The notes under the pieces were generated by a model, which was given only the letters and a program-made list of their open reading frames with translations, ran no database searches and was not told where the DNA came from. Shown in pieces: positions 36,234-43,156 of a DNA stretch of 43,322 bases. The DNA comes from Escherichia phage PSK2. The stretch is from sequence record PP541514.1. The stretch is one strand, 5' to 3'. A program made the translations under genes and the position numbers. How positions within the stretch are numbered: position 1 is the stretch's first letter; every line of letters starts with the position of its first letter.

Positions 36234-37190
36234 ATGGCATACAGCTGGCAAGAACAAATCAAGCCAGCTGGTACCCAGGATATCCAGTGCGATATTGAGT
36301 ATTTGGACAAGTCCTATATTCATGTATACCTAGACGGGGTGGAAACCACTGGATACACCTGGACCAGCGCTACCAATATAAGACTGAATTCAGCACTAAC
36401 GGCTAACACAACGGTGTTGCTGATTCGTAAGACTGAACGAGAGTATCTTTACATCGAGTTTGCTAGCGGCTCCCCATTCATTGAAGTGAACGTAGACTCA
36501 CAAAATACGCAGTTCTTGCACTTAGCCCAAGAGCTCGTGGAGGGCAGGGCCATCCCGGGATTCTACGGGAATATAAGTATGAACGGGTACCGTATCACTA
36601 ATGTCGCCGATCCTATAAACCCGCAGGATACCGCAACCAAACACTATGTAGATGCGGTGGATGCTAGACTTAATGCGCGTATTGATTCAGAGCACGCTTC
36701 GTGGGTATCGGCCGTACAGACTGAGGCTACTATACGAAAGGCTGCTGATGATGCTTTGAGTATGCGTACCTCCGCTCTGGAAAACACCTTCATAAGTGGC
36801 GTAGAAACAGTAAGTTACCCGTGGAGCACGGTGCTTACAGAGGCTACGGATGAAGTAACTCCAGGGTTAAAGTTCACTAAGGCTATAGTGGAGCTTAATG
36901 GTGTTGGGCAGATTCGGGGCTACAGTTTCGAGATTGTGGATAACACCATCATGTTTGCCGAGACTCTCCCTGCGGGGACTGTTGTAGCTGCTCGATTAGG
37001 TGCCGACGTAACTGCGGGGGATGGTTTCGCTACACAAGCATCTGTGGACCATTTAGCCAACTCATTAGGGGCTTTAGCGTACTCAGATAAAGCAGCAGCT
37101 GTGGCGGACGCAACCGGGGCTGCAGATGTCGTGGATCAACTAAATGGACTACTAGCAGCACTGCGTGCTAGCGGGGTATTAGCATCATAA
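36234..37190 (+). CDS. Tail fiber or adaptor protein
   Basis: 318 aa; position after the internal core genes where T7-like phages encode the tail fiber; short length suggests an adaptor for the separate spike. Confidence 0.55.
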   Translation: MAYSWQEQIKPAGTQDIQCDIEYLDKSYIHVYLDGVETTGYTWTSATNIRLNSALTANTTVLLIRKTEREYLYIEFASGSPFIEVNVDSQNTQFLHLAQELVEGRAIPGFYGNISMNGYRITNVADPINPQDTATKHYVDAVDARLNARIDSEHASWVSAVQTEATIRKAADDALSMRTSALENTFISGVETVSYPWSTVLTEATDEVTPGLKFTKAIVELNGVGQIRGYSFEIVDNTIMFAETLPAGTVVAARLGADVTAGDGFATQASVDHLANSLGALAYSDKAAAVADATGAADVVDQLNGLLAALRASGVLAS

Positions 37191-37202
37191 CAGGAGGATC
37201 AT

Positions 37203-37505
37203 ATGGCTGGAGCTGCCAAACGTAGTCGCCTCTCAGAGCTGCATCGCATGTTCACCGAAGCCTTGATTGAAGAAATCAAGCAGTCTAAGGAAGATGAGGT
37301 ACCACTTCCCGCCGCAGATAAGTCGGTCATCGCTAAGTTCTTGAAGGATAATGATATCACTGCGGATGCAGATTCCGAGGAGATGCAGGACCTTCGTGAT
37401 GAATTTGATGATGAACTAGCGGCGCGCAGAGAGGCGCGTAAACAAGAAATTTTAGGTAAGATTAGTGGTTCGGACTCAGAGGACTTACTGGAGGGAATTG
37501 TCTAA
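37203..37505 (+). CDS. Terminase small subunit
   Basis: 100 aa acidic protein immediately upstream of the large terminase; AGGAGG ribosome binding site. Confidence 0.5.
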   Translation: MAGAAKRSRLSELHRMFTEALIEEIKQSKEDEVPLPAADKSVIAKFLKDNDITADADSEEMQDLRDEFDDELAARREARKQEILGKISGSDSEDLLEGIV

Positions 37506-40577: not shown

Positions 40578-41160
40578 GGTTATTGCGGCCCTCACGGGGG
40601 CCACTATGCTCGGCGGCGCTATCACTGGGGTAATCCAGCACAACGAGGGCTTGAGCCTTACCGCCTACAAAGACAGCGCCGGTATCCCGACTATCTGCTA
40701 TGGGGAGACAAAGGGCGTCAAAATGGGCCAGAGAGCCACGCTGAGCGACTGTCAGAAGCAATTGATAGAATCAGCAGGGGTACATGCAAAGGCTCTTGAT
40801 GGCCTTCCTATGCAGCTCTCTGATGTAGCTCTGATAGGGTCTGTGGACTTTATCTATAATGTTGGGGTGTCTGGCTTCAACAATAGTATAGTGAAGCGAC
40901 ATCTCAAAAATCTTGATTATACAGCAGCTGGAAAGGCTGTACTGGACTGGCGCTATATTAGCAAGTACCAGAAGAATTCCCCAGGGATTGGATGGGAGTA
41001 CAAGGGCCATAACCGCTGGACCTTTGATTGCTCCCAGTACGTCAACGGACAGCGCAACAAAGTGTGCTGGGGCCTGTGGGAGCGCAGGCAGTGGCAATCT
41101 AAGGCTGTAGGCAACCGGTTTAAGAACGTGCAGGCAGCTCTATCTGAACTTAAACAATAA
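40561..41160 (+). CDS. SAR endolysin (T4-lysozyme-like muramidase with N-terminal signal-anchor-release domain)
   Basis: Weakly hydrophobic N-terminus VIAALTGATMLGGAITGVI, then catalytic motif EGLSLTAYKDSAGIPTICYGETKG (Glu, Asp, Thr triad pattern). Confidence 0.7.
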   Translation: MSLRTKVIAALTGATMLGGAITGVIQHNEGLSLTAYKDSAGIPTICYGETKGVKMGQRATLSDCQKQLIESAGVHAKALDGLPMQLSDVALIGSVDFIYNVGVSGFNNSIVKRHLKNLDYTAAGKAVLDWRYISKYQKNSPGIGWEYKGHNRWTFDCSQYVNGQRNKVCWGLWERRQWQSKAVGNRFKNVQAALSELKQ

Positions 41161-41170
41161 GGTTATTGGC

Positions 41171-43156
41171 ATGGAAAAATTAGTAGTTGCTAGACCTCCA
41201 GTAGTTGACGACGCTGGGTACTGGCTAGTGGACCGCTCAGCAATTGCTGGTGAGCTTGATTTTGGCCCCATTATAGCCCGGGCGTGCGCAACTGCGTCAG
41301 CAAGCGGTAAGGCTGTACAGTTTACGCACGGTAAAGAGTATTTGATAAACTCCGCGACCACTGTAAACGTAACCGGAGATTTAACTGTACTGTTTAATGG
41401 GGCTATACTGCGACAGGGCACTGCATCCGCTACGCTGGCATTCCAGAACTCCGCAGGGGCTGCTGCAGCCGTAAGCTCTGTGGAAGAGGTGTCCTACAAT
41501 TTGAGTGTGGATGCCAGTACAAATTCTAGGGTATCTAAAATTACAGCCCCTGGTCATACGCTATCTGTAGGGGACGTGTGCCGTATCTGGAGTGATGACG
41601 TAGTGGCTGACTCAGATGGGTCAAACCAGTTCCGCGCGGAGTACTTTGTTGTAGCGGCGGTGGTGGGTGCAGACATTTACAGCACAGGAACCCTAATTGA
41701 GAATTACAGCACTAACGTTTACGTGTGCTCCCCAGCTAAGCATAAACTCCGATTAGACAGTATGAGGGTTCAGAGTAGTATCACCCCCGGGTGGAACGCT
41801 AGCGCCTGCACTGTACGCGGCTTCATTGCACCACAGATAACGGGACCCTGCTCAGGCACTAATCTGAATGGTCCGTACCTTGATATCACAGGATGCTACA
41901 TGGCTAACGTAGAGTCTGTGATTGTAGAGTATCTAGTAAACGACACCAGCACCGGTAGTTATGGTTACGGAGTAAACGACTCAGGTAGCTACGGGACCCG
42001 CATAGGCTATCTAGCAGGATACTACACTAGGCACGTATTTACTACTACTACCGGGGGCCAGTCTGTCTCTGCTAATGACGGCAGGTGGGATCTGCGTGGT
42101 AGGTCCATGTTTATGTACTTAGACCATGCTATAGTCCAAGGTAACGCTTGCGGTATTGATACTCACGCCAGTACCTACAAATTCAACGTAGGGCATATTG
42201 TGTGCTTGCAGGATTACCGCGGTATGGGTGCCGGGGGTGTAGGCCTACAGTTACGCGGTAACAGCGTACGGGTTGATTCTGTTGAGGTAGTTAACGCCAA
42301 GACAGGGCTGTTTGTATCTGGGGCCAGCAAGACCTCCGACAACTTTATAAGTATTGGTCATGTACGTGTTAGTAGTAGGCAAGGCAGTGTACCTATAAAC
42401 CTACAGGGCAATGCCAGTACCCGAACTAAGGTGGTTATTGATAACCTCGAGTTTGATACGGTACATGATAGTGTAGTGTCTGTGAAGAATGCCAACGTCA
42501 TTATAAAGTATATCAGTGGAGAGTTTAACCCTTACCAGAATGGAGGGGAGCTGTTCGAGCTGAATACTGGGACGGTCTTGGATGTACTGGATGGGGATAT
42601 ATACATTAATGCAGGCACTGGTCATAACCTGGCCCTGCATAATGATACCGGCACAGTAGTTCGCGCGCGTTTACGATTTACTGCCTCTGGACGTGTATCT
42701 TACCTAGCTAGAAGTGCATCTCAGTATGATGTACAATCTGAGTGGGATGTACACGCCGATACTTGGTCTGGTACACCGTTCCTGGGAGTTCCTGAAGACT
42801 CAGCTAAAGTTCGCGCCAATATACGTGCTGGTGCTACCTCTTATCCACTGCGTTATAGGGCGCTAACTTACAGCACAGCGGGGGCACAGTCTGTGGATCT
42901 ACAGCGAGCTGGGGATGCGTGTATAGTACTGAGGGTAACTGCTAGTGTTGCAGGGGTCAGCTTAAGCTCTGTGACCAGAGGGGCATATCCCGGGCAGCAG
43001 CTACTTATCAATAACAACACATCCAGTGCCAGTACCCTCGCTGTAAGTAACAACAGCTCAGGCCTACTGACATTGGGGGCTGGGGTTACTCTCGCCGCAG
43101 GTGCCGGGCTGCTGTTGTTCTGGGATGGAAGTACCTGGAGAAAGGCTGGGGCTTAA
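41171..43156 (+). CDS. Tail spike protein, probable polysaccharide depolymerase (beta-helix)
   Basis: 661 aa last gene; Gly/Ser/Thr/Asn/Val-rich repetitive composition typical of right-handed beta-helix spikes; no T7 gp17-like N-terminal anchor. Confidence 0.6.
   Translation: MEKLVVARPPVVDDAGYWLVDRSAIAGELDFGPIIARACATASASGKAVQFTHGKEYLINSATTVNVTGDLTVLFNGAILRQGTASATLAFQNSAGAAAAVSSVEEVSYNLSVDASTNSRVSKITAPGHTLSVGDVCRIWSDDVVADSDGSNQFRAEYFVVAAVVGADIYSTGTLIENYSTNVYVCSPAKHKLRLDSMRVQSSITPGWNASACTVRGFIAPQITGPCSGTNLNGPYLDITGCYMANVESVIVEYLVNDTSTGSYGYGVNDSGSYGTRIGYLAGYYTRHVFTTTTGGQSVSANDGRWDLRGRSMFMYLDHAIVQGNACGIDTHASTYKFNVGHIVCLQDYRGMGAGGVGLQLRGNSVRVDSVEVVNAKTGLFVSGASKTSDNFISIGHVRVSSRQGSVPINLQGNASTRTKVVIDNLEFDTVHDSVVSVKNANVIIKYISGEFNPYQNGGELFELNTGTVLDVLDGDIYINAGTGHNLALHNDTGTVVRARLRFTASGRVSYLARSASQYDVQSEWDVHADTWSGTPFLGVPEDSAKVRANIRAGATSYPLRYRALTYSTAGAQSVDLQRAGDACIVLRVTASVAGVSLSSVTRGAYPGQQLLINNNTSSASTLAVSNNSSGLLTLGAGVTLAAGAGLLLFWDGSTWRKAGA

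Follow-up and report, generated by a model that had tools for sequence, protein, structure and literature searches.

The 43,322-nucleotide sequence of Escherichia phage PSK2 (record PP541514.1), referred to as a whole as the window, encodes towards its right-hand end two proteins that an earlier note, made from the sequence alone, had proposed as a split receptor-binding apparatus: a 318-residue protein at 36234-37190 and a 661-residue tail spike at 41171-43156, the last gene. Both open reading frames are as that note gave them, on the plus strand and beginning with ATG, and their database relatives and Pfam matches mark them as real genes. By its sequence the window is a KP34-like Klebsiella podophage (Drulisvirus): positions 36000-43322 match 254 phage records, nearly all of them Klebsiella Drulisvirus (Autographiviridae, Slopekvirinae), the closest being P252 (89.5% identity over 93%). 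The two proteins very probably make up a receptor-binding apparatus in two pieces, of the kind found in KP34-like Klebsiella podophages, in which a truncated first receptor-binding protein (RBP), the adaptor, holds a separately encoded spike. Their features are as follows:

36234-37190, plus strand: first RBP, the adaptor, 318 residues, homologue of KP34 gp49 and of 'tail fiber gp9' in PDB entry 23sh (open reading frame with ATG; Pfam and PHROG tail-fibre matches; 23sh)

36270-36653, plus strand: anchor domain of the T7 gp17 N-terminal type, residues 13-140 (Pfam PF03906 Phage_T7_tail, E 2.1e-17)

36687-36719, plus strand: 11-residue insertion SEHASWVSAVQ in the predicted helical stalk, residues 152-162 (alignments against the 307-residue KP34 gp49 and 23sh gp9)

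36765-37028, plus strand: conserved 'branching' domain of about 90 residues, residues 178-265, RTSALENTFISGVETVSYPW...ARLGADVTAGDGF (conservation in relatives)

37029-37187, plus strand: C-terminal helical tail, residues 266-318 (helices 268-283, 287-293 and 299-312, predicted with low confidence)

41171-43156, plus strand: second RBP, the tail spike and predicted capsule depolymerase, 661 residues, last gene (open reading frame with ATG; Pfam)

41171-41212, plus strand: putative N-terminal docking peptide, residues 1-14, MEKLVVARPPVVDD, a variant of MALxxLV that is two residues shorter (alignment to KpV48)

41477-41683, plus strand: predicted strand-rich insertion in the N-terminal part of the predicted β-helix, residues ~103-171, holding the invariant E157 (AlphaFold2 secondary structure; invariant columns)

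41939-42256, plus strand: most conserved stretch of the predicted β-helix and candidate active site, residues 257-362 (alignment of 25 family members)

42884-43141, plus strand: C-terminal β-sandwich domain, residues 572-657 (Pfam PF25692 Phage_depo_C, E 2.1e-12, 47.8 bits against a cut-off of 25)

The adaptor gene lies directly 3' of the gene for a 1232-residue internal virion protein (the gp16 position) and 5' of the genes for the small and large terminase, in the same way as KP34 gp49 lies between gp48 and gp50, and it thus occupies the position at which T7 encodes its tail fibre, as had been supposed. Of a full-length fibre of the T7 gp17 type it has the N-terminal anchor only. This domain is nearly invariant among relatives and, to judge by homology, probably attaches an adaptor trimer to the tail. 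No receptor-binding tip and no distal or enzymatic domain was found in the adaptor by Pfam or by alignment to P252; beyond the conserved domain only a short helical tail follows. The P252 homologue extends to 530 residues and resembles the solved 534-residue fibre 8vbx gp47, which bears out the view that 318 residues are too few for a full fibre. Database relatives of the adaptor number 648 at E<=1e-10, with 318 residues the commonest length among the 120 best-scoring, and the gp49 homologues of KP34, F19, KpV48 and Hope are 87-94% identical to it (KP34 gp49, 88%).

The branching domain is strongly conserved, the 530-residue first RBP of P252 included, and spans the region called T4gp10-like in KP34 gp49 (residues 186-242; PMC6872550). 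It is presumed to be the docking site for the N-terminal peptide of the spike. In some adaptors it is tandemly duplicated (P0159/P0160, 446 residues, and P0161-P0163, 406 residues; loci L089-L091), and the genomes with the duplicated domain have a single spike gene 3' of the endolysin (666 or 602 residues) and no second spike. The C-terminal helical tail is likely a trimerisation element. Within it residues 283-316 (37080-37181) give a weak, sub-threshold match to the C-terminus of the phi29 head fibre (Pfam PF11133 Phage_head_fibr, E 0.0046; PHROG 20838), with which the C-terminal helices may share a trimerisation element. Between anchor and docking domain, a low-confidence AlphaFold2 model predicts a long helix for residues 130-183. 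Homologues of the adaptor (P0159-P0278) come in discrete lengths of 307, 318, 329, 336, 347, 358 and 377 residues, and the differences are insertions in this stalk, several of them in 11-residue steps, the window adaptor standing one 11-residue unit above KP34 gp49. The distance between spike and tail may be adjusted through the length of the stalk.

The earlier note had read a β-helix into the composition of the 661-residue protein and asked for a structure prediction, and the prediction agrees with it. An AlphaFold2 model built with nine homologues (predicted local distance difference test score, pLDDT, 79.5) comprises a short capping helix followed almost entirely by β-strand, and its best Foldseek matches in the PDB are phage tailspike depolymerases: LKA1 gp49, the Klebsiella K1 lyase, AP22 gp54, phi297 gp61, K64-1 S2-4, the P560 depolymerase and KP34p57. 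The spike is accordingly modelled as a right-handed parallel β-helix tailspike depolymerase. Its relatives number 223 among 1.84 billion cluster representatives, and PF25692, its sole Pfam match, is also present in K5-2 ORF38 and in P0009, two homologues considered below. An alignment of 25 family members, with K5-2 ORF38 and the dep1011-like P0009 among them, contains 25 invariant columns, concentrated in residues 257-362 (N257, Y266, N269, R287, H288, T291, T292, D303, D330, H332, R350 and R362) and including E157. These residues are candidates for the active site, a catalytic role being suggested by their conservation. The insertion at residues ~103-171 may, by analogy, be akin to the β-barrel insertion of KP34gp57 (residues 103-203; PMC10653864).

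The homologues point to the substrate. Over residues 34-657 the spike is 30% identical to K5-2 ORF38 (E 4e-74), itself 98% identical to K5-4 ORF38, which has been purified and strips the K5 capsule only (PMC5496888). Over residues 32-657 it is 39% identical to P0009 (E 6e-131), which is dep1011 of phage P1011, since it begins and ends with the residues specified by the published cloning primers; dep1011 is a K5-specific depolymerase (PMC11077817). Identity rises to 49% with a spike of vB_Ko_K5lambda5. By the numbering scheme of its collection, the name of that phage suggests isolation on the K5 reference strain; the phage listing states no host. The enzymes of the K5-2 ORF38 and dep1011 types are 35% identical to one another, and at least as distant from each other as from the cluster of the window spike. 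K5 specificity seems to be old in the family, and K5 (KL5) is therefore the capsule type we predict for the window spike, with somewhat more confidence for it than against it. Capsule specificity can shift at such identity distances, and a specificity in common with K5-4 ORF38 and dep1011 is a prediction only. The nearest structural neighbours of the spike are mostly lyases and the K5 capsule contains glucuronic acid, so we lean towards a lyase mechanism.

How the spike might be held is suggested by its N-terminus. Pfam recognises no N-terminal attachment domain, so that the earlier note was right at the level of domains; what it missed is a short, putative N-terminal docking peptide related to MALxxLV. 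The enzymatic body starts at about residue 30, and homologues in other phages have roughly 20-700 residues ahead of the body, mostly at least 100. The first residues of the window spike, MEKLVVARPPVV, align to MALTKLVSARTPVA of KpV48 with a gap of two residues, retaining K-L-V and A-R-x-P-V, from which we infer that docking would proceed via a shortened MEKLVV peptide. No in-frame start lies upstream of the spike ATG. From 58 IMG/VR relatives retrieved via the endolysin, reading the following open reading frame with ATG starts only, 51 spikes were obtained; 45 of the 51 start with MAL..LV, and the MEKLVV form is common to the window, P252 and one IMG/VR contig (L008). Other last-gene spikes that depart from MALxxLV (L022, L046, L049, L063, L065) begin MNLVKAKYPVV, MPLTKLIRV, MLNLTKVATW, with an internal MSLIKLV, and MTLVKTIPY, some of which may reflect the choice of start codon. 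The range of these N-termini suggests greater variability in the docking peptide than the published heptapeptide conveys.

Indirect support for docking of the spike on the adaptor comes from a solved relative and from engineering of KP32 (PMC13352976). PDB entry 23sh, of a KP34-like phage, contains the nozzle gp13 (one chain), tail fiber gp9 (307 residues, three chains) and tail spike gp1 (577 residues, three chains). The window adaptor is near-identical to and collinear with 23sh_r 'tail fiber gp9' (E 1.5e-169), the main difference being the 11-residue stalk insertion, while the 23sh tail spike gp1 is near-identical to the last-gene spike of F19 (gp51). The window also encodes the third component:

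26823-29201, plus strand: nozzle, tail tubular protein B (23sh_T 'nozzle gp13', E=0, 1560 bits)

A close relative thus has its adaptor, spike and nozzle solved in one entry, known here as a co-deposition; a literature search found no paper behind 23sh and none for phage P252. With its T7 gp17-type N-terminal domain, its lack of an enzymatic or tip domain and its match to 23sh gp9, the short protein fits the part of anchor and adaptor for which it had been proposed. The suggested pairing with a separately encoded depolymerase spike likewise draws support from the co-deposition and the homologies, and it is an arrangement known from PMC6872550.

In the assembly that we propose, the 318-residue protein would form a trimer fixed to the tail by its T7 gp17-type N-terminal domain and, having no tip of its own, would offer a docking site in the conserved domain at residues ~178-265. 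The 661-residue protein would be a trimeric right-handed β-helix spike that docks on the adaptor via its first ~14 residues. There it would bind and cleave the capsular polysaccharide of the host, opening the way for the virion to the outer membrane, and as the cleaving component it would set the capsule-type host range. Since only the short peptide must be kept, the spike gene would behave as an exchangeable cassette at the genome end.

The nucleotide comparisons are in keeping with such a cassette. Against more than 250 relatives, homology breaks off at the stop codon of the endolysin and is regained ~30-55 nucleotides past the spike stop. Relative to P252 the spike gene is 96.2% identical in nucleotides and most backbone genes 86-87%, while little of the adaptor gene's 3' half can be aligned; the excess identity of the spike over the backbone indicates that it was exchanged recently between lineages. 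Among adaptors, those of phages Hope and KPV811 come nearest to that of the window. A spike of exactly the window sequence is absent from the assembly collection.

Several results weigh against the proposed assembly. The literal MALxxLV heptapeptide is absent from the spike, MEKLVV standing in its place, and a tblastn search of 50,697 phage records with spike residues 1-33 finds P252 only. On the adaptor side, the similarity to T4 gp10 was not reproduced, a profile comparison by hhalign giving Prob 0.18 with a shallow adaptor alignment (Neff 1.2), and the AlphaFold2 monomer model, from a 24-sequence alignment, is poor (pLDDT 51, and below 50 in the docking domain). Comparison of the spike sequence with KP34gp57 gives no match, and against PDB chains there is none even at E 1, so that the link to depolymerases is drawn from the fold search and the K5 enzymes; the activity, trimerisation and specificity of the spike are predictions only. 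Finally, all other carriers of the window spike have a first RBP of 530-533 residues, and the combination of a P252-type spike with a 318-residue adaptor is not seen elsewhere.

Other arrangements of the two proteins have to be set beside this one. The spike gene adjoins the lysis genes, following the endolysin, and its product has neither an N-terminal attachment domain nor the canonical heptapeptide, features that would suit a free, soluble depolymerase released at lysis and absent from the virion, with the 318-residue protein a degenerate fibre remnant; halos alone would not speak against this, as an RBP2 that is not incorporated is still able to make them (PMC13352976). However, KP34, F19 and others have a virion spike encoded at this gene position, in 23sh the counterparts of spike and adaptor from a close relative are solved together with the nozzle, and the spike N-terminus keeps the KLV..AR.PV core of the canonical peptides. 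Since the adaptor is tipless, the phage would moreover be left with no receptor-binding protein, and we consider a free enzyme highly improbable. Slightly less probable still is direct attachment of the spike to the nozzle or tail adaptor, the 318-residue protein then being a separate, short, non-enzymatic fibre. The known tail-binding element, the T7 gp17-type anchor domain, is missing from the spike; for a single nozzle chain, 23sh has three chains each of adaptor and spike; and in engineered KP32 phages the loss of the branching domain of RBP1, or of the conserved peptide, abolishes incorporation of RBP2 (PMC13352976). In favour of direct attachment is the failure of the profile comparison to confirm a T4gp10-like docking domain in the adaptor.

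The 318-residue protein might also bind a receptor itself, for instance an outer-membrane or lipopolysaccharide receptor via its C-terminal 50 residues, so that host range would be set by both proteins. The last ~55 residues are indeed conserved and helical, and relatives extend the protein to true fibres or enzymes of 530-948 residues (PMC6872550), yet this tail is highly conserved across unrelated spikes and capsule types, the opposite of what a specificity determinant would show, and it weakly resembles a trimerisation helix (the head-fibre C-terminus in Pfam, below the cut-off). We regard a receptor-binding role of the adaptor as improbable, if less so than the two preceding alternatives. 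A further reading takes up the unusual pairing: the window phage could have arisen by natural recombination, with a spike of the P252 type that is combined with the short adaptor, bears a non-canonical peptide and docks in another register or with another affinity, or via the K-L-V..A-R-x-P-V core alone. This is unlikely on present evidence. Were it so, the minimal docking element on which plug-and-play engineering of Klebsiella phages relies would have to be defined anew, and the window spike would be the first K5-type depolymerase characterised in a Drulisvirus scaffold.

Between adaptor and spike lie packaging and lysis genes that do not belong to the apparatus:

37203-41160, plus strand: the intervening genes as a whole, outside the apparatus (order as in KP34 gp50-gp56)

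37203-37505, plus strand: small terminase (Pfam/PHROG)

37505-39361, plus strand: large terminase (Pfam/PHROG)

between the large terminase and the spanin, plus strand: two small hypothetical genes (Pfam/PHROG; KP34 order)

39929-40324, plus strand: spanin (Pfam/PHROG)

40326-40577, plus strand: holin (Pfam/PHROG)

40561-41160, plus strand: endolysin (Pfam/PHROG)

The gene order is that of KP34 from gp48 to gp57, running from the internal virion protein through the short 'tail fibre', the small and large terminase, two small genes, the spanin, the holin and the endolysin to the spike. The 60-residue hypothetical gene between large terminase and spanin (39747-39929, PHROG 7375) shows the lowest backbone conservation relative to P252 (77.6% in nucleotides, its neighbours 86-94%). 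Terminator-like sites in 36000-43322 occur at the frequency expected from shuffles, and promoter-like sites in modest excess (14 against 8.1 +/- 2.5 in shuffles).

No plus-strand open reading frame of at least 50 residues follows that of the spike. Both ends of the window consist of a run of ten G (1-10 and 43313-43322), and when the window end is joined to its start with one G-run collapsed, the junction aligns unbroken to the right terminal-repeat region of KpV48. The window looks like a circularly collapsed assembly that was opened in the direct terminal repeat at the homopolymer, the physical ends and the repeat not being represented. The end and start of the window are contiguous in the terminal-repeat region of relatives, and thus no gene follows the spike in the genome, as in KP34.

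The spike would set which Klebsiella capsule type can be infected, and on this would depend the use of such a phage, both in therapy and to supply a recombinant anti-capsule enzyme. The predicted type, K5 (KL5), is associated with hypervirulence, and few depolymerases are known for it. For engineering, the boundaries of a spike swap are clear, with the endolysin stop on the left and a point ~30-55 nucleotides past the spike stop on the right, and the window would be a natural example of a docking peptide that tolerates loss of the 'AL' of MALxxLV. The understanding of how KP34-like phages are built is unchanged by these findings.

The arrangement is very probably the group A anchor-branch RBP system, which has already been described and is not new. 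In group A of the KP34viruses, as defined by Latka 2019, a first RBP of ~300 residues combines a T7-type anchor with a T4gp10-like fragment, five to eight genes intervene, and the second RBP has a β-helix and MALxxLV (PMC6872550). In the window the first RBP is likewise ~300 residues long with a T7 gp17-type anchor (pfam03906), and seven packaging and lysis genes separate it from the spike, which follows the endolysin. The points peculiar to the window are minor, namely the shortened docking peptide, the unusual pairing of adaptor and spike and the predicted K5 specificity.

KP34 itself has the same gene order and spacing and an adaptor 88% identical to that of the window (PMC6872550), and KP34gp57 (8BKE; PMC10653864) is of the same structural class as the window spike, a β-helix with a C-terminal β-sandwich, with 4RU4, 4RU5 and 4Y9V as structural neighbours of both. 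It differs in that gp57 has no detectable similarity in sequence to the window spike, for which a different capsule type is expected, that its peptide is MALTKLV (MEKLVV in the window) and that its adaptor has 307 residues rather than 318. In the phage of 23sh the adaptor and nozzle are near-identical to those of the window, whereas its spike, of the K2 type like F19 gp51, is unrelated in sequence. The reverse holds for P252 (PP934443) and three IMG/VR/Logan contigs (L008, L087, L088), which carry the same spike (97% identical in amino acids, 96.2% in nucleotides) with the MEKLVV N-terminus on a Drulisvirus backbone, but have as first RBP a fibre of 530-533 residues related to 8vbx gp47, a layout like that of group B. 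The K5 enzymes K5-4/K5-2 ORF38 and dep1011 are homologous to the window spike over the whole β-helix and sandwich and have the invariant residues and PF25692 in common with it; they come from other genera (Przondovirus, Webervirus) and have other N-terminal attachment modules. The same principle of an anchor-bearing protein and a spike docked by a short N-terminal peptide recurs in KP32/K11 (gp37/gp38) and in K1E/K1-5/SP6 (PMC6872550, PMC13352976), although in KP32 and K11 the first RBP is a full depolymerase, the two genes are adjacent, and neither the anchor nor the peptide is related in sequence to its Drulisvirus counterpart (PMC13579863).

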